Shown piece after piece: positions 44,633 through 58,517 of a stretch of DNA of 64,000 nt. This DNA comes from an uncultured Verrucomicrobiae bacterium (GTDB taxonomy: Bacteria; Verrucomicrobiota; Verrucomicrobiia; Chthoniobacterales; UBA10450). The position numbers and the translations under genes are program-made. Location of the stretch: contig CAVYXA010000001.1 in NCBI GenBank assembly GCA_963772365.1, positions 128,001 to 192,000 of the forward strand. The letters are read 5' to 3'. The notes beneath the pieces are model-generated. The model ran no database searches and had not been told where the DNA came from. It saw nothing but the letters and a program-made list of their open reading frames with translations. Position 1 is the first letter of the stretch. Each line of letters opens with the position of its first letter.

Positions 44633-45289
44633 TTATTTCGTGGCCAGGTTTGCCTGACTGGCGACACACTTCCAGGAGCCATTTTGCTTCACCCATGTAT
44701 CGGTGAACAGAAAAGTGCGGTCGAAAGCTTTGCCGTCTTTGCCGGTGCCCTTTTCACGATACTTGCCCACGACAACGGCAACATCATTGCTGTATCTGTG
44801 AACATCGAGCTTTTCGTTCTTTCCGTACGTGTAAGTGTCCTTATCTCTTTTCATCTCAGCCAACATGCCGCGACGATTCTGAATTTTACCCCTTGAACTT
44901 ACGCCGACGAAATCATCGGCCACCATCGCTTCGACCGCGGGCAAGCCCTGCTTTCCGTGAGCCTGGGCCCAGCGGTTTTCGTTATCCTTGAGCGCAGCTT
45001 CCACGCTCATTTTCTTTCCAGATGCCATCGCCGTCGGAGAAGCTGTCTTGGTGGTTTTGGTGGATGCGGCGCTCTTGGTCGGTGTTGCTGCGGGAGACGC
45101 GGTGGCGGAAGGGGTCGGAGACATCGCGGGGCTGGCTGTGGTTTCCACCTCAGGCGCAGCTGCGGGGGTTTCCGCGGCAGTCGTGGATGGAGTCTCCTCC
45201 ATTGGTGTAGCGCTGGGTTGCTCTCCTTGTCCAAAGACCGAGGCAAGCCCCAGTGTTATCGCTGCGATGAATGGTGTAAGTGATTTCAT
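44633..45289 (-). CDS. Secreted NTF2-like (DUF4440) protein with Pro/Thr/Ala linker
   Basis: Signal peptide, low-complexity linker, 'ADDFVGV..G', 'FTDTWVKQNGSWKCVASQ'. Confidence 0.85.
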   Translation of the reverse strand: MKSLTPFIAAITLGLASVFGQGEQPSATPMEETPSTTAAETPAAAPEVETTASPAMSPTPSATASPAATPTKSAASTKTTKTASPTAMASGKKMSVEAALKDNENRWAQAHGKQGLPAVEAMVADDFVGVSSRGKIQNRRGMLAEMKRDKDTYTYGKNEKLDVHRYSNDVAVVVGKYREKGTGKDGKAFDRTFLFTDTWVKQNGSWKCVASQANLATK

Positions 45290-45481
45290 TTCAATTTCCT
45301 TTCAGGGTTAGCTTTCGAACGCTGGATCGCGCAGCGGCCTTTGCCCCACTCTGGCGGTCACGACTCGAGCTATTTCGGAGTCATTTGGCGTTGTCAAAAG
45401 CGAGCGTATTGGGAACGGCGCGAAACGGTCAAGGTTTTATTGCAATCCTTAAAACGCGCGCTCGAGACGCCAGGCAGTTTG

Positions 45482-45522
45482 GTAAACGCTTGACCGATCG
45501 AGGAAGAAAGCCTCAAATCATA
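45482..45522 (+). promoter_or_regulatory. Shared upstream motif copy 1 (TTGACC-containing, promoter-like)
   Basis: GTAAACGCTTGACCGATCGAGGAAGAAAGCCTCAAATCATA, similar to 50293-50332. Confidence 0.5.
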
Positions 45523-45539
45523 AACTAAGATCAGGGGAT

Positions 45540-46343
45540 ATGGATCGCTATGCTTATCGTATCGTGTTTTTCCTAGCCATATGGTGGCTGGGAAATAGTG
45601 GATTTGGATCGACAGTTCGTGCGGCTTCCACTGATGGCGTCGCTCGCATTACACAACGCTCCGGCATCGTGCAATCGATCAAACCGGCCGGTCGGGCTGG
45701 TGCGGCCGCATTGCGCGACACCATCGAAGAGGGATCTGTGTTGCGAACCGGAAAAGATGGACAGGCTGAATTAACTTTTGACGATCAAACTGTCGTTCGG
45801 CTTGCGTCCGACACCGTCTTTTCCTTTCGCAATGGGGCTTGCGATCTCAACCTGAGCGAGGGCGCCGTATTGGTGGAATCGCCCAAGAGCGGACTAGCCG
45901 CAAAAATTGAGGCCGGAGAAATCTCGGCTGCGATCAGCGGAACGACGTCCGTCTTCGAATATCGCCACGGCGTTTGTAAATTTTTGGTTCTCGAAGGCAA
46001 AGGGCGATTGTATCGGCCGCGCCATGTGGGCGATTCGGTCTTGGTCGGCCCGGGTCAGATGGTCTTCGGCAATGCAAAGGATCCCCTGAGTGATCCAGTC
46101 GACTTCGATATCGCCCGTTTCATTCGGACCAGTCATCTTATTGTCGATCTTCCGCCTTTGCGGACTCAGGGAGCAATCGCGGCCGCGGCTCGGGCGCAGG
46201 ATGGTAAGAAATCAAAAAAGACATTAATGGAAACGAACCTTGTCATCCACGGCGGCGGCACTGTCGTTTCACTCGTCAACCCGGACGCACCGAAAGCCTC
46301 AAAAGCAGCGAGTCGCCAGTCGAGATCGAAAATAAAAAGATAG
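45540..46343 (+). CDS. Secreted stand-alone FecR-domain protein
   Basis: Signal peptide; 'LRTGKDGQAELTFDDQTVVRLASDTVF', 'AAISGT', 'VLEG'. Confidence 0.85.
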   Translation: MDRYAYRIVFFLAIWWLGNSGFGSTVRAASTDGVARITQRSGIVQSIKPAGRAGAAALRDTIEEGSVLRTGKDGQAELTFDDQTVVRLASDTVFSFRNGACDLNLSEGAVLVESPKSGLAAKIEAGEISAAISGTTSVFEYRHGVCKFLVLEGKGRLYRPRHVGDSVLVGPGQMVFGNAKDPLSDPVDFDIARFIRTSHLIVDLPPLRTQGAIAAAARAQDGKKSKKTLMETNLVIHGGGTVVSLVNPDAPKASKAASRQSRSKIKR

Positions 46344-46372
46344 CCAAGCAGAAATTATCCGGGCAAAAATTA

Positions 46373-49300
46373 ATGAAGAGAAAAATTTCTATCAAAAGGT
46401 CAGATCGAGTCACAACCGCGGTCTTCGCTCTAATCTGCGGAGCGGTGGCTCTAAATAGAATTGTCGATGCTGCGCCCCTCAACTCTGCGCGGGTCTCCCA
46501 GGTGATCCAGGATGTGCGCCTGTTAAAGCCAAGCGCGCCGCCGCGTCCCGCCGTCGTAAACGATATGGTTACCCGCGAATCGGCAGTGCGTACCGGAGTT
46601 GAATCGCGAGCCGAACTAACGTTTCCCGATTTGACCATTACTCGACTCGGGCAGAACACAATCTTCACCCTGTCCCGAGGCGCTCGCGAGATCCATTTGG
46701 ATTCGGGTTCCCTTCTTCTGCAAATCCCGCCAAACGCTCCGGAGGCGAGAATCATAAGCCCCGGGGTCACCGCTGGAATTGCTGGCGCTACTGCTCTTTT
46801 TGCAGTCGGCCCGCCAAGGAAGTTCATGGTCCTGGAAGGCAACGGATTTCTCTTTCCAACCGGACATCCGGAACGCGCTGTTCATCTCCAAGCCGGAGAA
46901 ATGGTGATGATGACTGCTGATGGACGCATCACGCCGGTAATGACATTTAACGTCGGGCTCGTCCTCAGCACATCTCATTTGATCACCGATTTTCCCGAGT
47001 TGGCTAATCTGACGTTGATTTTGAATATCGTTAACCAGCAGGGAGCAGGCTTTGGCGAGTCGCCCGGGCCGCCTCCATACAGGGACATTATTGAAGTTGC
47101 CGATCAACGATTTGCCGCATTGCCAACTCTCACGCCAAGCGCAACACCTACCCCCACGACGACGCCGTCCCCTACGCCGAGCAAGTTTGGCACGCCATTA
47201 GTGATCAGTTCGCCCGTGCCCTACATCATTACTTCGGGAACGACGATCACGACCGACCCCTCCATCACCACTAACGGTGTGACTGCCTACGGAACAATTT
47301 ATCGCGGGCCCACCGCCGACGGGCCATTCACAATGTGGGCCTTTGGATCGACAAGACCTTTCGACACGGCGCTGAATCTTGATAGCGAATTCTTTTCTGA
47401 CTCAGCCAATCTGCCGATTGCCGTTTTTAAATTTCAAAGCTTGTCGCTGACCGGCAATCCAACGATCGACACAAGCAACGGCGGAGTCACACGCCTCGGC
47501 TTGATCGGTGTGAGTGGTATCACGTCTGGGCCGCCCGGCGGCCCGTTAACGTTTAGTGGCCTGGACGGGCTTTATCTCGGGACAGTCAATGGCTCGATCA
47601 ATCTTAGCTCTGACATTTCTTTTGCGAACCTTGACACGCTGGCGATTTATGCCCGTGGAAGCGGCTCTAGCCTAACGATCAACTCGCCAATTTCAAATAT
47701 CGCTAATCTCAAGCTTGCTGCCGAGGGATCGCTTCAGCTTACCAACTCCGGGAGCATGAGCGTCGGAAGCTTTGGCTCGACGGCCGGCGGAAATCTGAAT
47801 GTACAAATCCACGGCTCGCTATCGTTAGACGGTCAATTTCGCCTGGACACTCTGGTCTTGCCGGGAACGAGCGTACCCAATGGGGCCAATGTCACATTAA
47901 CTGTCGGCAACGATTTTACGAACAGCTCGGCTGACGATATTTCCCAGTTGCGAGTGAAGAACGAAAACGGCCATATCGGAAGGGGCGGAAATATTTCGAT
48001 GAACGTCGGGGGGGATCTGATGACCGCGGGCGATTTCGAAATGACGGTTCAAAACACCTCCGGTCAGATCGACAACGGCGGCAACATCGCACTGACGACT
48101 TCCGGCAGTGTCTCTACCGGCGGAGCGTTTAGTGTTCTCGTTGAGAACTATGATTTCAGTGGCAACGCTGCAGGGCACATCGGTACGGGCGGAAATATTT
48201 CCGTCGCGACGGGAGGAGATCTCTCCGCGCAATCGATCATCGCGCTTGTTAATAATCGTAGTGGCGGCCAAATTGATTCGCCGGTTAGCCTTACTTTGAA
48301 CGTCGGCGGCGCGTTGACGACTTCCGGCGAAAGCACCGATCCATTTGGATTTCCAGAAAGCCTCTCGGTTACTATTTCGACCAGGTTTGACAACATGAGC
48401 GGCCCGGCGCTCGCTTCAACCATCGACGGCAATGCGACTTTGACGATTAACGCAGGCACCGCTTCAATTGGCGGCCGGCTCTCCACCATCATCAGCAACA
48501 CTGGCAGCACTCTCAATGGGAGTGCGCTCATGAATCTTGGCATCACCAACGGCGTGTCCATTGATGGCGAGGCTGACTTAGAGATTTTGAATGACGCCGA
48601 CATCGCCAGCCCTCTCGGCGGCGTACTCCATGGCAGCGCGACTCTGCAGGTGCTCTCAAATAACTTCACGGCCAACGCGTTATTCGCCCAGATCGATAAC
48701 CGGGATGGCGCGTTGATCGATTCGAATGCTGCCATTGCTTTTGATTTGACAGGAAGCTTTGCCATACCTGGGACGAACCCCGGCAATTCAGGTTTCGATG
48801 CGACCGTGCCGGGCGAGGCGGATATTCTTATTGATAACCAAAAACGTGGTGTCAGCCAGGACAACGCTACAAGCGGCGGCACGATTGGGGGAAGCGCGTT
48901 GATTCAGTTGAGCGCCGCCAGCGCTTCCATCGCGGGTCTATTCGACGTTGAGATCGACAATTTCAACAGTGACAGCGGCGTCAGCGGTGGAAGTATCGGA
49001 AGCAATGCCGCGATCGACTTCAACATCACTAGCAGCCTCCAGGTTGTAGGCGACGCGGACTTTCAAATCTTGAACGAAAGCCGGGCTACCCGTTCGGCCG
49101 GTGGAACAATCGGCGGAGATGCCACGATAGACGTAAGCGCGGCCAGCATTTCTGCGAACTCTTTGCTTACCCAAATCAACAATAGCAATTTCGGCAGCAT
49201 CGGCGGAAACGCCACGATCGACGTAACTGTCCCTAACATTTCCATTGGTGGGAACCTGTTTAATCAAATTGACAATTCGAATGGCGGCACGATCGGCAAT

Positions 49301-50206
49301 GCCGCAACGATCAACATGAATGTTTCCGCCACTGCCACGGTGACCAATGACGCACAGTTCAATATTTTCGGCAGTAATGGGGCCTCGTCCGCCGCCATCA
49401 ATTTCAATGGCGGCAACTATAGTGTCGGAGGCATGTTTCGGAGTACCATTTCCGATGACGGTGCAATCGCCTTTAACAATGCCACGGTGCAGGCCGATGT
49501 GCTCAAAGCCGGTGTTTTCGGTCCGAATGGCGTGCTCAACGTTGGGGGCGGGATGCTTAGTGGCAACACAGAGTTCAAGCTCTACGCTTCTGGCAGCAAC
49601 GGTTCCATCAACTTTCTAACTGATGTAACTTTGTCAGGGCAAACGGCTGCGCCGATTATCGCTGCCAATACCGTAACCATCTTCGACGGCGTCGTAGTTA
49701 CCATCACCGGGCAATCAGGCATGGCCATGGTTTTTGCCAATGTGCCGAACTATTCTGGCTCCGGGGGCAATGGTAGTACTACAGGGACGTTCGGTGGGAA
49801 TGGAGCCCAGACCCAGTCTCTCTCTTCAGCGCCGCCATTTGATGGCCCGATTCTCGCACCGGAAACCATCGAGCCCAGCGGCGGGGCAACCTCACATCAC
49901 GGGACTGACACAACATCCGCAGCCGCGCCCCGAAATGCCGAAAGAGCTGATGATTTCAGAGAACCTCGCGCGAGAACGGCTGCTGCCACGATTAACATTA
50001 GAAACAGCTCTCAATTGCTGGCACTCCTTGACGATGCGGTTCCACGACCCCGAGGCAAGATCTCAAGTGCAGCGGGACATAAAACCGCCGGGGCAAAAGA
50101 TTCGAGTAGGATCGACATGGCCGACCGCCTGAAGAACGTTCGCATAAATTTAGACAGCCATCGCAACGGCGAGCACGAAAGGCCCGGCCTTCTGGCCAGG
50201 CAATGA
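46373..50206 (+). CDS. Large secreted protein: FecR domain, PT linker, Gly/Asn/Ser-rich beta-solenoid repeats
   Basis: 'VRTGVESRAELTFPDLTITRLGQNTIF'; repeats such as GGTIGGDATIDVSAASIS..QINN; 1277 aa. Confidence 0.85.
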   Translation: MKRKISIKRSDRVTTAVFALICGAVALNRIVDAAPLNSARVSQVIQDVRLLKPSAPPRPAVVNDMVTRESAVRTGVESRAELTFPDLTITRLGQNTIFTLSRGAREIHLDSGSLLLQIPPNAPEARIISPGVTAGIAGATALFAVGPPRKFMVLEGNGFLFPTGHPERAVHLQAGEMVMMTADGRITPVMTFNVGLVLSTSHLITDFPELANLTLILNIVNQQGAGFGESPGPPPYRDIIEVADQRFAALPTLTPSATPTPTTTPSPTPSKFGTPLVISSPVPYIITSGTTITTDPSITTNGVTAYGTIYRGPTADGPFTMWAFGSTRPFDTALNLDSEFFSDSANLPIAVFKFQSLSLTGNPTIDTSNGGVTRLGLIGVSGITSGPPGGPLTFSGLDGLYLGTVNGSINLSSDISFANLDTLAIYARGSGSSLTINSPISNIANLKLAAEGSLQLTNSGSMSVGSFGSTAGGNLNVQIHGSLSLDGQFRLDTLVLPGTSVPNGANVTLTVGNDFTNSSADDISQLRVKNENGHIGRGGNISMNVGGDLMTAGDFEMTVQNTSGQIDNGGNIALTTSGSVSTGGAFSVLVENYDFSGNAAGHIGTGGNISVATGGDLSAQSIIALVNNRSGGQIDSPVSLTLNVGGALTTSGESTDPFGFPESLSVTISTRFDNMSGPALASTIDGNATLTINAGTASIGGRLSTIISNTGSTLNGSALMNLGITNGVSIDGEADLEILNDADIASPLGGVLHGSATLQVLSNNFTANALFAQIDNRDGALIDSNAAIAFDLTGSFAIPGTNPGNSGFDATVPGEADILIDNQKRGVSQDNATSGGTIGGSALIQLSAASASIAGLFDVEIDNFNSDSGVSGGSIGSNAAIDFNITSSLQVVGDADFQILNESRATRSAGGTIGGDATIDVSAASISANSLLTQINNSNFGSIGGNATIDVTVPNISIGGNLFNQIDNSNGGTIGNAATINMNVSATATVTNDAQFNIFGSNGASSAAINFNGGNYSVGGMFRSTISDDGAIAFNNATVQADVLKAGVFGPNGVLNVGGGMLSGNTEFKLYASGSNGSINFLTDVTLSGQTAAPIIAANTVTIFDGVVVTITGQSGMAMVFANVPNYSGSGGNGSTTGTFGGNGAQTQSLSSAPPFDGPILAPETIEPSGGATSHHGTDTTSAAAPRNAERADDFREPRARTAAATINIRNSSQLLALLDDAVPRPRGKISSAAGHKTAGAKDSSRIDMADRLKNVRINLDSHRNGEHERPGLLARQ

Positions 50207-50292
50207 CATTTCATGCGCTACAAATCGCGCCATTTTTATGCTAAGTGCCGATGCGCTGATAACATTTTTGACTATCTCGGCCGATCCTCGCA

Positions 50293-50332
50293 GTAAAAGC
50301 TTGACCCAGTAGGCGGAAAGCCTCAAAACGTA
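50293..50332 (+). promoter_or_regulatory. Shared upstream motif copy 2
   Basis: GTAAAAGCTTGACCCAGTAGGCGGAAAGCCTCAAAACGTA. Confidence 0.5.
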
Positions 50333-50396
50333 GCCTTTTCCCGTGGGACCGGGAACTCGGGCTAAAGCGACAGGCGGCTTTTCGCAACGATAACCA

Positions 50397-53300
50397 ATGA
50401 AAAGAAAGACTTCCGTCAAAAAATCGGATCGAACCACGATGGCAGTATGCGCCCTTATCTGCGGTGGCGTGGCCCTCGTTCATATTGTCGATGCTGCGCC
50501 ATTCGAGTCGGCGCGGGTTTCACGAGTGATTCAGGATGTGCGGTTACTGAAACCGAGTGCCCCGCCGCGGCCGGCCGTAGTAAACGACACCGTCACGCAG
50601 CAAACGGCGGTGCGAACAGGAGTTGAATCGCGCGTCGAACTAACATTTCCCGACTTAACTATCACACGCCTTGGGCAGAACACGGTGTTTAGTATGGTTC
50701 AAGGGTCCCGGGAAGTTCGCTTGGATTCCGGTTCCATTCTGTTGCAGGTGCCGCCAAACAGTCCGGCAGCAAGCATCAAAACCGGGGCAGTGACCGCTTC
50801 CATCTCGGGTGGGACTGCTCTGTTTGCGGTGGGGCCACCCGTGAAATTTATGGTGCTGGAAGGAATAGGCACATTCTTTCCGACCGGACATCGGGAGGAC
50901 GCGGTGACGCTTCATGGCGGTGATATGGTCATGAGGACTGCCGCTGGTCGCATCACCACACCGATGAAGTTTGACGTCTCACTCGTTCTGAAAACCTCCC
51001 ACCTGATCAGTGATTTTCCCGAGCTCGCCAATGTACCGCTAATTTTGAATGTAGTGAACCTGCAAGGAGGCGTTGGCGAACAGCCCGGCCCGCCGCCATT
51101 TAGAGACATTATTGAAGTTGCCGACCAACGATTTGCTGCATCGGAGACTCCCACACCGACTCCAAGTGCGACGCCAACACCAACCGTAACTCCGACTGCA
51201 ACTCCATCTGCTACGGCAACTCCAACCGCGACGCCGAGTGCCACGCCCACGCCCACCGCTACACCAAGTCCGACCGCCACTCCATCTGCTACGCCAAGCA
51301 AATACGGTACTCCATCTGTGATCAGTTCCCCGATTCCCTACACAATCACGTCGGGCACAGTTATAAACACTGACCCAGCCATCACCACCAATGGAGTTAC
51401 GGACTATGGAAAGATCTATCGCGGCCAACCTGATGGCCCATTCACAACCTGGGCGTTCGGTTCCACATCGCCATTTGATGTCGCCTTAAATATCGACACC
51501 GAATTTTTTGCCGATCCAAACCATTTGCCGATTGCGGTATTCAAGTTCCAGAGCCTTTCCTTGAATGGCAATCCTACGATCGACACGACAAATGGCGTCA
51601 CCCATCTGGGATTGGTGGGCGTAGATGGAATTACTTCCGGATCTCCTGGCGGTACGCTGACGTTCTCGGGGCTGGATGTGCTGCTATTGGCTACGGTGAA
51701 TGGTCCGATCAATCTGAGCTCCAATGTCTCATTCGCCAATCTTCCGCTGCTCGCCATGTATGCCCGTGGCACCGGCTCCGATCTCACGATTAATTCTCCG
51801 CTTTTAAATATTGGCGATCTGCGATTGGCGGCGGAGGGCTCCATCCACCTGATGAGAACTGGCAGCATGAGCACTGGCGCGATTCAGGCTACGGCTGGTC
51901 GCAGCATTGGTATGAATATAAGCGGCTCGTTGACGCTAAACGGCGTCGCCAGTTTTGAAACCTTGGTCCTCCCGGGGACAGCGGTATCAGGAGACATGAA
52001 TCTCAGCCTCGACATCGGCGGCAATTTCGTGAACAACTCGGCAGCCGATTTGACGCGGTTCCGAATCAGCAACGACGGCACTACAATCAATGGAAATGCC
52101 TCGATTCAAACTTCGGCCAACAACGTTTCGCTCGGAAATTCGCTTTTCGCCCTAATCGACAATCCGGGCGGACATATCACTGGAAGCGCAGACATCGGTT
52201 TTTTATCGCCCAATTTGACAACCGGCGGTGACGCAAGTTTCGACATCCGGAATCCCGCTTCGGGGAGCCCAGGGGGAATTATCGACGGCAACGGCGAAAT
52301 TCAGGTAACTGCATCGACGATTTCGACGGCCGGCCTTTTCGATGCAGAGATCGATAATTCCGGTCCTGTCGCGCCGATGGGTGCTAGCGCCGGCGGCACG
52401 ATCCTTGGTATTGCCGCGGTAAACGTATCCGCAACGAATCTTTCCAGCGGAGATTTGTCCGCGGCAATACTGAACCGTGGCGGCGGCACGATCGGCAGCC
52501 AGGCGCTAGTGAGTATTGGAGTCACCGATAGCCTGATGAGCAGTAATCTTTACACCCTCATCGATAACCGCGGGGGACAGATTGGTTCCGACGCTCTGAT
52601 CGATTTCTCCGGCAATGGAACGCTCAGCTCGCAAGGCGGCATGTGGTTCCAGATCTTAAATAACCCGTATCGGGAGGAGCGGGTGGCGTAATAAACGGCA
52701 TGGCGCTAATTGACATCGGTGCCTCCGGTCTCAACGCGGGCTCGCTTCTGGCGGAGATTGATAACACTTCTGGTCAGATTTCCGGCGCTATGGCCATCTT
52801 TTTCAATCTGTCGGGCAATGCCACGATAGACGGCGACGCAACCTTTGCTATTTATGGGAGGGATAGTCTCGGATCCGCAGAACCTGTAAGCGAAGGAGAT
52901 GGGTTGGCTCCTGTCGCACAGATTGGGATCAACGGCGGTAATTACGATGCGGGCGGGACATTTCTTGCCTCCATCAACCAGGATGGGGCGATCACGTTCG
53001 ACGGTTCAAGTGTTCACGCAGATGTGCTCAAGGCCGGAGTGTTCGGTTCAAATGGCACCATCACCATCGGCGGCGGCGGTACGCTCTCGGCTGATTCTAC
53101 CCTGAAGCTGTATGCCCCCGGTGGTAACGGACAGATTAATTTTATTTCGGATGTCACCCTTGGCGGCAGCGGCGCAAAGATTCTTGCCGCGAATTCGGTC
53201 ACCATCTCCGACGATGTCGTCGTCACAGTCGGCGGACCAGCGCCTGTTGATGTTTATACGAACAATGCCAATTACTCGGGTTTCGGCGGCAACGGAACCA

Positions 53301-53710
53301 CGAGTGGTATTTTTGACGGCCAGGGTGCAAATAATCCCCAGCCGCTGTCCAGTGCGCCTCCATTTAATGATCCACCAGGCGGCGAATCGACAACTGCCGG
53401 GGCCCAGAGCACTCATAATGGAAGCATTCCGCGAATTGTCGCTCGACACGGTGGAGATGGCTCGGTTCAAGATGGCGCCGCAAAAGGCGATGCATTGCAC
53501 GTTCGCAACAGCGACGAATTACTCGCTCTGCTGGATGATGCCGCTCCAAATCATGCCGGGAAAATTGTGGTCCCCCGTGGGAGAAACGCCGCCGGCTCGA
53601 AAAATCGGAATGGCCTGAACGAAGTTCGAGTGGAGAAAAGAACGCAACTCGATCGCGATCTTCAACGCCTGCGCGACCGACGACAACCGCACGTTGTCAT
53701 GGCGCAATAA
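50397..53710 (+). CDS. Paralogue of 46373-50206 (FecR plus beta-solenoid), split by one frameshift near 52670
   Basis: Both termini align by eye with the upstream paralogue; the alternative frame GGAGGVING reads into ORF 52700. Confidence 0.8.
51147..51299 (+). repeat. Pro/Thr-rich coding repeat (TPSA/TPTA/TPTP) linker
   Basis: About 50 aa here versus about 19 aa in the paralogue. Confidence 0.8.
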
Positions 53711-53715
53711 CTTCC

Positions 53716-54684
53716 ATGCGATATCAATCGCCGGTTGATTTTCAGTTAATTTGCGCGCTGCTCCTTGCTCCTTGGATCATTGTGGCGCAGACAAGCTTCG
53801 CGCAGACTGTTCAAACCGATCAACGCGAGTTGGTGCGAGGACAGGCGCCGTCGCCCTTTGCTCCCAATGTTCCGCCTGCCGGCACGGAAGCGGGGAATGC
53901 GGAGCCGATCGCGAGTGATGTCGATCTGGGCGAACAACAAATCTTAAAACGAGTCGAGGAATATCAACCGTTTACGGCATCGGTCGGCGTGCCGTTTTAC
54001 TGGACCTCAAATGTGGCTCTCACCTCCAGTGGCGAACAGGATGATTTCGTTGTGGCCCCGGCCGCGGCGGTGTTTTACGAGCCCCGAGTAAATCAAAACC
54101 TCTATGAGTTCCTCGGCGTTCGTCAGCAGTTTTTTTATTACGATCGGTTTGATTACTTTAATTTTGGCAGCTTCGACCTCGAAGTCGGCTTTCGATACCT
54201 AATCCCACACTGCCATAATCTGGTTTTGCGTTTTGAGTACCGATTTCAATCGGCTCACTGAAAAGGACAGCGCCGAAGCGTTTTATTCGGATCATCTCTT
54301 CATCGCCAATGCGGAAATTCCAATTCGCATTGGCCGCGCCCAAGCAGATCACTATTGGGAGTCAACGAAATTATCAGCGCCGCGGCTTGTCCGGAGACCC
54401 CGCGTCGCAACGATTACGAAGTGTACGCCGGTTACATTCGCAAATGTAAGTCGCGGGCTTTTAGCGTCAATGTGGCGGGCGCATTGTCCTGCGCGATTAT
54501 TACCACGAGGATTCGCGTGTCGATGTTAGCGAAATTCTTGCCTTGGGCGCGAACTATCGGGTAACGAGATATTTCACAGCCAGTGCCGTCGCTACTCTTG
54601 CCTCAAGCCGATCGAATCACAGCGTATTCGATTACGACGTGGCGAATTTGGGCGGCGTTGTATCCTTTTGCGATGCGATTCTAA
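53716..54684 (+). CDS. Probable outer-membrane beta-barrel protein (several frameshifts)
   Basis: Signal peptide; 'FYWTSNVAL..EQDDF' and alternating aromatic strands; reconstructed C-terminus ..GGVVSFAMRF* ends in Phe. Confidence 0.65.
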
Positions 54685-54829
54685 TCTCGAGGTAGAGATT
54701 GGCGGGTGATACAGTAAGGGCGCGTCTTTCAGTCTTTCCGTTGCTCTTCCACGTGGGAGAGACGGACGGACAGCGCCAGTGAGGGCAAAGGACTGGGTTT
54801 GGGAGAGGCAGATAGGGCGGGCAATACGC

Positions 54830-55767
54830 TGGAGCATCCGTGAGCTACTCGCGCCGCTCTCGTCGAGATATCCAGCGCCGAGCGACCAGTAGCGACGCGA
54901 GAGTCGCGAATGGTATGGGATCGAACGGCGCAGGGGGAAGATCGACAATTCCATTCCCGTCCATGCGTGCAGGTTGTCCACATAACGCCCATGCCTCGGC
55001 GCCGAAATCTTTCCGCAAATGCCTTCCATTCGACGTGGCAGATCACTCTTCGAAATTGGAATACCGTGACCACAACCAATAACGTTAGGCCGTAATTTGC
55101 GCGAGTGCGATCGATCGAGGAGCGCGCCGCATCCCAATCCAGGGTGAACGGTGCGGGCGGACGGTGACAATTGTTGCCGTCCGGTGAACAATCCCGCTCC
55201 ACGAATCCATATCTACCGATGGCAATTGCATCGCCAGCAATAAGGACTCCATCGGAAGGCCTGAAAAAATGAAATGTGACCGGGCGAATGACCGGGAGAT
55301 TCGGATCGATTCCCAGCCGGTCAGGCCGGGCAGTTCTCCATCCGGCAATTCTCGAACCGTTTCCCAAATCACTCGGGCGCGAGGGAGAAAACGCGACAGA
55401 AAAGCGAGAGCACCGCCCACGGTCGGATCGGCGGAGGATAATTCGATTTGCCGGTGAGATAGGGCAATTCCAGCCGATGAGCGTAGATCGTCACGTCCCA
55501 TTGTTCTGCTAATTCAATGCTGAGCCGGCATGATCCGAGTGACCATGCGTCAAAAAATAGCCTCCGGCCGTGAACCGTCGCCAAAGTGTGCTTCCGCTGC
55601 TTCAACAATCTCCATTGCCCGACCAGGAAAACCGGCATCGACCAAGTACCCATTTTCCGCCGGGTCGTCCGAGAAAATAAACATTGGCAAAGCTCACTGG
55701 CAGCCAGCCCACTTCCGGAGCGATGTCCGCATTGATCTCGTCCTTTCCGTCGGCCACTGATTTTCAT
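54830..55767 (-). CDS. MBL-fold metallo-hydrolase (several frameshifts; 3' end approximate)
   Basis: Hand translation 'WVLVDAG', 'IFLTHGHSDHAGS', 'LIAGDAI'. Confidence 0.75.
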
Positions 55768-56441
55768 GGGATGAACAAGCTTTGCCCGACCTTCAATTTC
55801 TCGGGATCGTCGATGTTTTTTTGTTAGCATCGAGAATCGCTTTCCAGTGAGGCGGCGTCTTGTAAAATTTTCGCGAGATCGATGCCAGCGTGTCTCCCGA
55901 TCGGCACGATGTAGGTCTGTCCTCCAGCTTTTTTAAAGCCTCCTGGCCGAATCGGACGGCGCCTGATTTTCTGGCACGCCCCGCGACGCGAGTTGAACGT
56001 TCTTCCAATTCCTTGCGCAACGCCAGATTCTCGTTTCGCAAGCGCGCGGCCTCGGCACGCGTGAGGACCGAATCGCCCGACAAGTCGTGAGCAACATCAC
56101 CTCATCGTGTTTCATGAGATGTTTCACCTCGTTTGCATGAGGGCCATCGGGACTAACGACGAGATAACGTTTGAAGTGATGCAGCGCATTGAGCGGATCT
56201 TTCATTTTGTCGTCATACACATCCGCCAGCTTATAATGAACTTCCGCGCAATGCGGGCTGTCGTCCAAGCGCCGCTTCATACAGATTGATCGCCCGCAAA
56301 AAATCACCCTGCGATGATTTTGCGATTGGCGTCTTTGACGAGTTGCGCATGCCGCGATGTCATCATGCGATTGCATCCAGCGAACAGCCCAGGCAGAATA
56401 AAACCCAGAGCGAAGATCGACAACTTGTCAGCGCGGTTCAT
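55764..56441 (-). CDS. TPR plus LysM lipoprotein (frameshifted)
   Basis: Lipobox FAGC; 'AEVHYKLA.VY..ALHHFKRYL'; LysM 'GDTLASISRKFY..W.AI.DAN..LKVGQSLFIP*'; ATGA-coupled to the MBL gene. Confidence 0.75.
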
Positions 56442-56459
56442 CTCGGCAATCTGCTCAAT

Positions 56460-57025
56460 TGTGAGACGTTACGCGCATTTCAATTTTTCGCGTGCCTCAT
56501 AGTCCTTTTTACAACGGGACATCGTCGATGGCCGCCAGTTCACCGTTGGCCAAGACTATCGGATCAAGTTCGTCGATCTCGATGGTAACACGATAGTCAC
56601 GAATGACGGCCACGTCAGCATCATTGTCCTGACCACTCGCCCGAATTGGCCGAAGACCAGGAGGTGGGAGATCGCGATTCCGGATTTTTATCTGGGTAAA
56701 CCCGATTATCGGTTGATCGCGGTCGTGGATTTTGGCGAACATAGCGCTCCCGTCCGTGCACTTGCTCAAAGCCGGTGCCCATTTTCGTCTGAACAGCTGC
56801 AGCACGACGAGCTCAGCCGCAGATATGATCGATAGAAAATATCTCGCGATCCGCGGTGAGAATATTTTCGCAGTCGCGGATTTTGACGGAACGGCGATCT
56901 CTCAATTTGGTTTTGAACTGGCGAGGGCTCTTTTCGGGTCTCTGTGTTCGATGGAAAAGGCGAACTGCGGGCGAAATGGAACGATGTGCCCGGGGCGCAG
57001 GAATGAGCTGCAAAAGCTCTCAAAT
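56460..57025 (+). CDS. Hypothetical protein (frameshifted; boundaries approximate)
   Basis: Protein-like segments in shifting frames: 'YRIKFVDLDGNTI..GHVSIIVLTT', 'IFAVADFDG'. Confidence 0.35.
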
Positions 57026-57030
57026 CAGCC

Positions 57031-58160
57031 TCAATATCTCGGCACGCTGGGATCGATCTTTTCCGACCAAGCGTCGATCCCGCCCTCGAGATTGAAAACA
57101 TTCCCCAGATCCACGTTCGCGGAGTAATCGCACTGCGGCTGCGCTCCGTTGGCCGCTGTGACAATGGACAATGATCGGTTGATCCTTTTTGAATTCGTCG
57201 CGCGGTTGGCCGATCTCCCGAAGCGGGATCAGTTTCGCTCCATCGATCCTCGCGATCTCGTGTTCGAATGCTTCCCGCACATCGATCAACTGGAATGATT
57301 CGCCGCATCCATTCTTTCGTTTCAATTCATGAACTGAAATTGCCGGTATCGAATCCTGCTTGCGCGGAATTCCGCAGAAGATTTCGTAATCAATCGGCTC
57401 AAAATTGTCGGGCTGTCGCCGCAAACAGGACAGTCCGGATCCCGCCGCAGATTCAATTCGCGGAACTTCATTTTCAAAGCGTCGAAATGCAACAGCCGCC
57501 CGACTAGCGGTTCGCCTGCGCCGAGAACCAGTTTGATCGCCTCGATCGCCTGCGATCAAACCGATGATCCCCGGCAATACACCCAGCACGCCCGCTTCCG
57601 CGCAATTGGGAACGCTGCCCGGGTCTGGCGGCTCGGGAAAAAGACAGCGATAGCACGGACCGCCCAAGTGCGGCGCGAAAACAGTGGCCTGTCCTTCGAA
57701 GCGAAAACGGAGCCATAGACATTTGGCTTGCGGGCGAACACACACACGTCGCTCGACAAATACCGCGTCGGAAAGTTATCGGAACCATCGACACTCACGT
57801 CGTATTGCTCGACCAGGCCTGAGAGCGTTCTGGCTGGTGAACCGGCATTCATGCAGTTCGAGATCGATGTTGGGATTGAGATCGTGCAACCGATCGCGGG
57901 CCGATTCCAATTTGCTTCGCCCTACGTCTTTTGTTCCGTGAAGGATTTGCCGCTGCAAATTGGTAAGATCGACATCGTCGAAATCGACCAGCCCAATCGT
58001 GCCTATGCCCGCTGCTGCCAGATATAGTGCCGCAGGTGAGCCGAGCCCGCCCGCGCCGACGCAGAGAACGCGCGCCGCTTTCAAGCGGCCTTGGCCTTCC
58101 GATTCCGACTTCCGGCATGATCAGATGCCGCGAATAACGAATCCGTTCGTCATCCGTCAT
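57031..58160 (-). CDS. moeB: MoeB/MoeZ-type adenylyltransferase with C-terminal rhodanese domain (several frameshifts)
   Basis: 'RYSRHLIMPEVG', 'VGAGGLGSP', 'NLQRQ', 'DGSDNFPTRY', 'PCYRC', 'LIDVRE', 'HCHSGQRS', '..IDPSVPRY*'. Confidence 0.9.
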
Positions 58161-58448
58161 TGTGAGTTTACCAGGTTCCATTTGATTCCCACGATCCGCT
58201 TGTTCTCGAATCGCTTCAACGATTTTGGAAAAATCAGATAACTGGCTGCTTTCGTTTTCTTTAAAGCCAACAATCCCAAATTCCGTTCCACTATCGCTTT
58301 TCTGAATCGTCATTACGTGATGATTCCTGATCGCCGGTTGGAGATGTCGATCCTGCGCCGGTTTTTGCCAAAGTGTGTAAGCTTCCGGTTTGCCCGCTTT
58401 TTCAACGGCTTCACTGAATCGTGCTGTCTTAACCTTGAGAAGTTTCAC
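58157..58448 (-). CDS. Hypothetical protein (frameshifted), coupled to moeB
   Basis: 'KTARFSEAVEKAGKPE.YTLW..' ending IVGIKWNLVNSQ* with ATGA overlap. Confidence 0.5.
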
Positions 58449-58517
58449 TGGTAGGGACCGACCGCCGGGCGGTCCTGGATTCAGGTGTTCGGCGCGCCCG
58501 GCGGTCGTGCCCTACCA
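58449..58517. repeat. GTAG-type REP doublet (REPIN-like)
   Basis: TGGTAGGGACCGACCGCCGGGCGGTCC ... GGCGCGCCCGGCGGTCGTGCCCTACCA. Confidence 0.7.

Follow-up and report, generated by a model that had tools for sequence, protein, structure and literature searches.

What can exported proteins with FecR-like heads do when they are encoded beside an outer-membrane barrel? The question is raised by four genes of an uncultured Verrucomicrobiae bacterium (Chthoniobacterales, UBA10450; assembly GCA_963772365.1), which occupy 45540..54684 of the window, the 64,000-nucleotide stretch of DNA that was analysed (contig CAVYXA010000001.1, positions 128,001 to 192,000). On balance, and by no wide measure, we favour the answer that the locus supplies the outer half of a system that spans the envelope, displays and senses, and has three parts: the barrel, the FecR-headed proteins and a CHASE2 enzyme encoded elsewhere. 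Gene anatomy, predicted folds, the adjacency of barrel and head genes, the linkage and co-divergence of CHASE2 and the motifs of the cyclase were computed from sequences and models.

All four genes are co-directional, as a preliminary description of this DNA had stated, and lie on the + strand. P1 (45540..46343) encodes a 267-amino-acid (aa) protein with a signal peptide, a FecR-like head of the CJM type with a Gly-Thr motif, a helical extension, a TNLVIxGxGT motif and a short basic tail. P2 (46373..50206; 1277 aa) contains a signal peptide, a FecR-like head (46472-47047), a disordered Pro/Thr linker (47048-47170), a predicted beta-solenoid rod (about 47190-49820) of which both ends are conserved, and a basic, low-complexity tail. 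P3 (50397..53710) is a paralogue of P2 with a longer Pro/Thr linker, a single gene whose reading frame changes near 52660-52680; the heads of P2 and P3 are 73% identical. The predicted outer-membrane barrel gene (53716..54684) has four frame changes as assembled. Its ATG lies 5 nt 3′ of the P3 stop, the spacing first described, and the terminal Phe noted at the same time (54679-54681) is present in a frame that is reached only past the last frame change.

PF04773 (FecR) was matched above the Pfam cut-off by P1, P2 and P3 (E 3e-11, 6e-7 and 4e-9, respectively), and the FecR matches in the whole 3.35 Mb genome are exactly these three. In P1-P3 and aligned relatives the head begins about 30 residues past the start codon, behind a signal-peptide-like stretch. 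Signal peptides were called by eye from a positive n-region, a hydrophobic stretch and an Ala-x-Ala-type end, without a lipobox; export of the three proteins is likely. The preliminary description had placed a signal peptide directly before a FecR-like domain in all three paralogues, and this arrangement was found; the common extension motif F[D/N][I/V]-x5-TSHLIxD[L/F]PxL is present in the three translations exactly as claimed. In an AlphaFold model of P2 (residues 34-1161, 91-sequence alignment, mean pLDDT 89.3), a beta head with three helices is followed by the disordered Pro/Thr linker, and about 870 residues form an all-beta rod. The head model aligned to the CJM subdomain only of PupR (6OVM; Z 16.5, rmsd 2.4, 136 residues). 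This alignment ends at residue 251, the start of the STN subdomain according to the available part of PMC7186176, and the three helices and the linker come next. The flanking open reading frames (ORFs) scanned, which include part of the broken downstream ORFs, encode neither an extracytoplasmic function (ECF) sigma factor nor a TonB-dependent receptor, which agrees with the earlier remark that neither is adjacent. Without a cytoplasmic anti-sigma domain, an STN subdomain, or an adjacent sigma factor or receptor, the heads are not anti-sigma factors, again as first proposed.

The head may resemble a periplasmic anchoring domain, another early suggestion: 5IX9, the anchoring domain of an adhesin, was matched weakly (prob 1.00, TMt 0.70, rmsd 1.7 over 61 columns, E 0.1). 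The NCBIfam matches of P1 to Lsa33, Lsa19 and retention_LapA were weak and all far below cut-off; for the retention model NF033682 the values were E 0.016 and 15.4 bits vs a cut-off of 50. Pfam recognised no family on the head extension or the tails of P1-P3. Against the sequences of solved structures the best E of the head profile was 0.067 (PupR, E 0.99), and when 185,579 species genomes were searched by pattern for the P2 head, one weak, unrelated locus was returned.

Heads and barrels were surveyed by whole-genome profile searches, and fragments of one gene were merged before counting. Among 151 genomes of the order, the barrel was present in 73, a head in 74 and both in 72; one genome had only a barrel, two had only a head and 76 had neither. 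One head-only genome turned out to carry a divergent barrel next to its head (L090). A same-strand head was located within 10 kb of 82 of the 89 barrel matches, directly downstream in 68, and 106 of 136 heads lay within 12 kb of a barrel. These figures bear out the earlier idea that the barrel is a dedicated partner of the FecR-headed proteins. Barrel homologues were present in 28 of the 41 nearest genomes, a count that includes G008, and in the host family barrel, heads and CHASE2 were all found in 18/18 genomes of the order survey. The labels of the homologues lead to Chthoniobacterales, Candidatus Udaeobacter among them, which is very abundant in soil and little studied as to its surface. 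Across the phylum, the barrel was matched in 20 of 201 sampled genomes; beyond the order only two genomes had strong, full-length matches, most of the rest being partial. The weak matches to the barrel in other Verrucomicrobiota (frames of about 400-500 aa) were excluded from the membership counts. When nine weak-match loci were inspected, a head or CHASE2 was present within 1.5 kb only in L162-L164 (barrel frames of 343-385 aa), and both were present within a wider stretch at L165. The system is real and conserved.

A gene of about 700 aa that recurs near the barrel in other families encodes a transmembrane adenylate/guanylate cyclase with CHASE2 and Guanylate_cyc domains; at two barrel-linked loci a CHASE2 histidine kinase takes its place. 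CHASE2 was present within 5 kb of 47 of 89 barrels, 41/65 outside the host's family and 6/24 inside, and in 72 of 73 barrel genomes vs 24 of 78 others. The sole CHASE2 protein of the source genome (G000) is a 710-aa cyclase at about 650.4-652.5 kb of G000:C1, about 470 kb from the locus; here its association with the barrel is one of phylogeny, not of linkage. Around the cyclase gene (L179, G000:C1:636000-656000) we also observed a GspD/GspE-type secretin and ATPase at a distance of 3-6 kb, a RES/Xre toxin-antitoxin pair and a Mur ligase in between, and mreBC-pbp beyond.

A CHASE2 tree was made by a quick IQ-TREE search from 55 proteins (61 loci were entered and 6 were too distant), and a barrel tree by FastTree from 53 rows, in which the same-genus genome G001 stands in for the broken barrel of the window. 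The G000 cyclase fell into a 17-row host-family clade (SH-aLRT 99) inside a 39-row group rich in barrel-linked CHASE2. The barrel tree contained the matching 18-row clade (support 100), and the two systems of several genomes formed separate clades. The sole retained CHASE2 protein from a barrel-less genome sat on a very long branch. Barrel and CHASE2 distances were correlated at 0.77 over 50 pairs and at 0.56 over the 25 linked pairs. In seven two-system genomes, the barrel-CHASE2 pairing given by linkage ranked first of 128 swaps (0.768; next 0.728, worst 0.469). For the unlinked pairs of G016, G149 and G155 the CHASE2 copy nearest the clade was chosen, which favours the overall correlation and not the swap test. 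Metal-binding and substrate motifs were kept in 16/17 members of the CHASE2 clade and the transition-state motif in 14/17, so that the cyclase motifs are intact in the clade; the G000 enzyme is predicted to be an adenylate cyclase, and its genome gave five cNMP-binding matches. Rods homologous to that of P2 were found in eight fetched loci also holding CHASE2, chosen for a long head gene or a position outside the order, and seven of the eight matched the C-terminal rod profile too. By these sequence comparisons, the barrel-head system has a third component, a CHASE2 cyclase or kinase that is conserved and co-diverges.

Several observations weigh against the three-part system. CHASE2 is unlinked in the source genome and at 18 of the 24 barrels of the host's family. 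Head and CHASE2 distances were correlated at only 0.43 over 49 pairs, with the linked pairing first of 128 by a thin margin (0.434 vs 0.425). Related genomes are not independent, so figures of this kind measure co-inheritance and not physical contact, and mirror trees also arise by shared inheritance or by joint horizontal transfer of a gene block. In G058, which has a barrel and a rod, CHASE2 was not matched, and in each of G004 and G161 one CHASE2 match accompanies two barrels. The 12-strand fold of the barrel also suits small-molecule channels (COG4313, Z 19.9), the type II-like secretin and ATPase of the genome could export the rods instead, and the barrel gene of the source genome is broken as assembled. 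In G058, the only barrel genome without a CHASE2 match, the barrel and the rod-bearing head adjoin a TPR-CHAT protease-like gene (L071, G058:C1).

The size of the heads bears on what the system may do. Of the 136 heads, 88 were in frames of <600 aa; a long head was present in 35 of 74 genomes, and in many genomes the barrel is accompanied by a short head only. These leave little to display, which argues against a stand-alone, two-partner-like export and display system whose barrel would secrete or anchor adhesin-like rods, whose head would serve only in targeting or retention and whose CHASE2 would be at most a co-inherited gene regulator. CHASE2 paralogues also follow barrel paralogues even where linkage is lost, and pairs of FecR-domain and CHASE2 genes are known with other anchors, with LysM in Burkholderia (in the accessible text of PMC5192318) and with TPR proteins in Campylobacterota (likewise PMC9239204). 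We therefore regard such a system as rather unlikely, although the tight operon is that of barrel and heads, with CHASE2 frequently divergent or unlinked, the barrel resembles those of autotransporters and FapF, the rods fold like the solenoids of curli CsgA, Vag8, HxuA and EtpA, and the head weakly matches a retention domain. The preliminary description had seen export and adhesion only, and with so many short heads and a conserved, co-diverging CHASE2 that part of it was not supported.

Intact homologues of the barrel are about 315-340 aa long and have a signal peptide, a poorly ordered N-terminal segment of ~55 aa, 12 predicted strands and a terminal Phe. The barrel was modelled on one of them, P0089 (314 aa; 102-sequence alignment; mean pLDDT 84.3, about 95 over the barrel), and the model contained no periplasmic folded domain, TPR or POTRA. 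The nearest solved folds were autotransporter translocators (Z 22.0 to 17), a COG4313 channel (19.9) and FapF (17.7), at 7-13% identity; AaaA was aligned with Z 22.0 (rmsd 3.2, 267 aligned) and NalP with Z 19.9. Polypeptide-passing 12-strand barrels, namely the autotransporter translocators and FapF, are thus among the nearest folds, which speaks for the three-part system. In Pfam scans of 21 intact barrels, one of them from G008, no match was obtained to Slam (PF04575), TPR (E<=0.05), POTRA/ShlB or the autotransporter family PF03797. PF04575 had no match in G000, and the control genomes likewise gave none; nor did the control genomes of a ShlB search of G000 give a match. As the preliminary description had anticipated, the barrel is by these family-model searches neither a TpsB nor a Pfam autotransporter nor a Pfam Slam protein. 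BBP2_2 (PF10082; EpsL/Wzi-like) was partially matched by 11 of the 21 barrels, mostly in the C-terminal third of the model, and two matches were above cut-off. The last ~100 barrel columns weakly resembled TPR-Slam barrels (hhalign probability 29.7, E 5.6e-4, 103 columns, 4-sequence profile), and one Atlas cluster named Slam-family was found for the barrel (rank 26, score 0.96). Slam and TbpB structures were absent from the best 50 matches of wide structural searches with the barrel or P2 models, and the barrel profile had 0 matches among the sequences of solved structures. At L072:2756-5950 and L057:2797-4530 barrel domains end longer frames (1065 and 578 aa), whose N-terminal part has no Pfam match; the L072 frame overlaps an opposite-strand CHASE2 gene and may be an artefact.

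The repeat region of the rods is rich in Gly, Asn, Ser, Thr and Ala and is free of Cys. Cys-free, Gly/Asn/Ser-rich solenoids are typical of extracellular passengers. The rod model aligned to the beta-solenoids of curli CsgA (Z 18.1, rmsd 9.3), Vag8 (16.0), an ice-binding beta-helix (15.9), HxuA (15.1) and EtpA (13.4), and the C-terminal part of the rod protein aligned to beta-helices within the whole model, with no Pfam match to an 8-strand cargo barrel. Foldseek with the P2 model listed no beta-helix, whereas the wide structural search did give beta-helices; the ESM Atlas leads for the rod were all below 0.9. The P2 model accordingly agrees with the early prediction that the large proteins are beta-solenoids behind a Pro/Thr linker. 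Likeness to a solenoid fold says nothing on the identity of the rod ligand. Barrel-adjacent head proteins range from about 240 to >2,400 residues, a spread that would be more in keeping with a fibre on the surface than with a fixed strut in the periplasm. In the host family the rods may have multiplied into variable arrays of paralogues that share one barrel and one cyclase.

A short, conserved ELLALLD-like motif lies within the low-complexity basic tail after the rod of P2 (49940-50203) and of P3 (53462-53707). It had no Pfam match and is a candidate export or capping signal. A likeness of this motif to STN domains was considered and found no support in Pfam.

For the three-part system, we infer the export and binding steps as follows. 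Sec would carry all parts over the inner membrane, and BAM would insert the barrel, which ends in Phe. The rod of P2 or P3 would be threaded through the barrel with its C-terminus first. The disordered Pro/Thr linker would remain in the pore, and the folded head, too large to pass, would keep the rod on the surface. A periplasmic head, most likely of the P1 type, would touch the CHASE2 domain. Binding or load of the rod, or occupancy of the barrel, could then alter cyclase activity, and Crp-family proteins would read the cAMP. Threading is proposed because of the position of the linker, the variable length of the rods, the fold of the barrel and the analogy with LapA (10.1101/198937, the part available). 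The relay is proposed because of the co-divergence and because of the gene clusters of FecR-domain and CHASE2 proteins with other anchors cited above. The head and the conserved C-terminal end of the rod are equally good candidates for the targeting signal.

A receptor relay could also work without threading, the barrel being an NsrA-like receptor or gated channel for an outside signal, the heads relaying this signal to CHASE2 in the periplasm and the rods being periplasmic or exported by a type II route. That short heads are the commonest form, that COG4313-type channels are equally close to the barrel in fold, and that a secretin and ATPase lie 3-6 kb from the cyclase gene would all suit such a relay, as would the description of NsrA as a receptor for a protein signal (in the accessible text of PMC7529298). 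We consider it quite unlikely. Rod genes adjoin the barrel gene in most loci that have them, and their lengths vary several-fold; the composition of the solenoids is that of extracellular passengers, and a long disordered linker lies exactly between head and rod.

The three heads differ in ways that may reflect a division of labour. P1 keeps the Gly-Thr motif and has TNLVIxGxGT after its helical extension, while P2 and P3 lack TNLVIxGxGT and have Gly-Ala and Gly-Gly, respectively, at the Gly-Thr position. At least one TNLVIxGxGT-bearing head, short or fused to a rod, was present in 16 of 18 mapped loci of the host's family. The pattern in these sequences suggests a core relay head of the P1 type together with accessory rod-bearing paralogues, and P1 is likely a periplasmic relay or adaptor. 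The adaptor role given to the short paralogue in the preliminary description thus finds indirect support, in the motif that P1 alone carries among the three and in its recurrence across the family. Gly-Thr/Ser is kept in 69 of 95 heads, and it is absent from 49 of 91 P2-like homologues. The Gly-Thr position is presumably that of the FoxR site. Autocleavage at this motif as a means of releasing P2 and P3 was considered and is disfavoured by their Gly-Ala and Gly-Gly and by the lack of the motif in those 49 homologues.

Other FecR-headed proteins were observed apart from barrels. A second set of 300-460 aa occurs in the host's family at a distance from barrel genes (L078-L085, e.g. G041:C11, G020:C4, G016:C14); two of its members lie near a class II tRNA synthetase gene, and the set was not found in G000. 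One FecR-headed protein of 4,822 aa (L086:1431-15896, G044:C15) has no barrel nearby, and its body was unmatched by the P2 rod profiles.

In its working, the system is most like the NsrA - CyaK/CyaD1/CyaD2 - Clr pathway of Sinorhizobium meliloti, and its layout resembles type 11 secretion. NsrA, which reportedly carries FecR and TPR domains, is ~1200 aa long with a barrel part of ~600 aa; the barrel here is a separate, TPR-less, 12-strand protein of ~320 aa, and the heads are encoded separately and may carry solenoid rods. Common to both is an outer-membrane barrel tied to an inner-membrane class III cyclase with CHASE2, with a cAMP output that is here only predicted. According to the available parts of PMC7529298 and PMC13001267, NsrA is needed for CHASE2 cyclase signalling in S. 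meliloti. NsrA-CyaK is the one tested barrel-CHASE2 pathway, and in these parts no step across the periplasm is described for it. The Clr regulon of that bacterium includes SMc02177, which has a FecR domain (PMC5498481, in the part available). The order of the source organism also holds an NsrA-like fusion of 1093 aa, FecR + TPR + a weak barrel (L092:6910-13308; G080:C1, about 3.431-3.437 Mb), which lies close to a divergent CHASE2 cyclase gene; the fusion showed no profile similarity to the barrel of the locus (probability 0.2).

Slam systems of type 11 (DUF560, PF04575) also combine a Sec-dependent barrel with adjacent cargo genes. They differ in that neither PF04575 nor TPR was matched by the 21 barrels scanned, in the 12 predicted strands here vs 14 in Slam (accessible text of PMC8406197), and in the cargo: the C-terminal 8-strand barrel that defines it in the available part of 10.1101/2023.03.15.532718 has no Pfam match here, and the rods are predicted to end in solenoid. 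In other Verrucomicrobiota, 4/4 TPR-Slam genes examined are directly followed by a FecR-domain gene (L171, L172, L173 and L178; G230, G242 and G265), and all three TPR-Slam loci hold a downstream CHASE2-like ORF. Because TPR-Slam genes come with FecR-domain and CHASE2-like genes there, the system of this locus appears to be one branch of a wider barrel-FecR-CHASE2 architecture, a branch that lacks TPR, has 12 strands and bears solenoids. The words cyclase and CHASE are absent from the main text of two type 11 secretion surveys (PMC8406197, 10.1101/2024.09.26.615229).

Type Va secretion has the 12-strand translocator fold in common with the locus, but here the passenger and the barrel are encoded by different genes, both of which begin with a signal-peptide-like stretch in intact relatives, and PF03797 is lacking. 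As in type Vb, the passengers are separately encoded beta-solenoids; unlike there, POTRA and the 16-strand TpsB of the Omp85 family are lacking, as is the TPS domain Haemagg_act, FecR being the only Pfam family above cut-off on P2, P3 and the long relatives scanned. With FecIRA and PupIRB the heads have PF04773, the CJM fold and, putatively, cross-envelope signalling in common. They differ from these in lacking a cytoplasmic anti-sigma domain, a membrane anchor and an STN subdomain, in that the search for an ECF sigma factor or a TonB-dependent receptor in the scanned flanks gave none, and in a putative output by cAMP or a kinase. In RTX adhesins such as LapA and MpIBP, the long protein is held in a pore of the outer membrane by a folded domain at its N-terminus (10.1101/198937, the part available), as may be the case here. 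Those adhesins have no signal peptide and leave by type I secretion via a TolC-like pore, while here there are signal peptides and a barrel of monomeric type.

A bolder proposal is that the TPR-less 12-strand barrel serves on its own as the pore that secretes and anchors separately encoded solenoid fibres of up to 2,400 residues, and that the head, retained in the periplasm, is both plug and signal arm, driving a cognate CHASE2 cyclase. We put it forward tentatively, as possible but somewhat less than probable. If true, it would provide a secretion route outside types I-XI that doubles as a touch or adhesion sensor, a protein ligand for CHASE2 domains, whose sensing target was stated as unknown in 2016 (PMC5192318, in the part available), and a single ancestral device behind FecR heads and adhesin retention modules. 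In the literature searched, from which subscription papers were mostly absent, a TPR-less barrel with FecR-headed solenoids was not described. The locus amounts to a small version of the NsrA-CyaK pathway whose three parts can be taken separately: a barrel of 320 aa, a head of 220 aa and one cyclase. Natural paralogue pairs suit specificity swaps, so that the head as CHASE2 ligand and export of the rod by the barrel are directly testable.

The frame changes raise the possibility that the system is genuine in relatives and decaying here, with the barrel gene and P3 as pseudogenes. P3 was assembled as two ORFs (764 aa + 336 aa), and both of its frames were matched by 116 of 120 long homologues. 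The barrel is readable only across four frame changes in about 1 kb, a density that would fit decay, as only 8 of 81 other tested genes of the same assembly had matches in more than one frame. An assembly or consensus error is nevertheless the likely source of the frame changes in both genes, judged from the same sequences, because those eight genes show multi-frame matches likewise and because the pieces of the barrel are still 46-79% identical to an intact homologue. Similar breaks affect unrelated genes a little further downstream (55-58.5 kb), the barrel is intact in the same-genus genome G001, and P1, P2 and the cyclase gene are intact. Decay is for these reasons a very improbable explanation. 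Several minus-strand genes at 54700-58500 of the window, one of which we take to be MoeB/rhodanese-like, are fragmented by frame changes, which suggests that the consensus is locally poor.

Of the surroundings, the flanking ORFs scanned encode DUF4440, an alpha-amylase/maltokinase-type protein or no recognised family. Rfam gave 0 matches over 45200-55000, and hence no known riboswitch. Two promoter-like elements were found on the + strand. The first (45489..45517; TTGACC, a 17 nt spacer, TCAAAT) is upstream of P1, and a near copy (50298..50327) is upstream of P3; both may act as promoters, to judge by their sequence and position. Their common 12-mer core occurs three times in the 3.35 Mb genome, always in the locus, and the third occurrence (46281-46303) lies within the 3′ end of P1. 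In relatives, a looser form of the pattern was present before 3 of the 58 genes for heads or barrels, the P1 orthologue of G001 among them.

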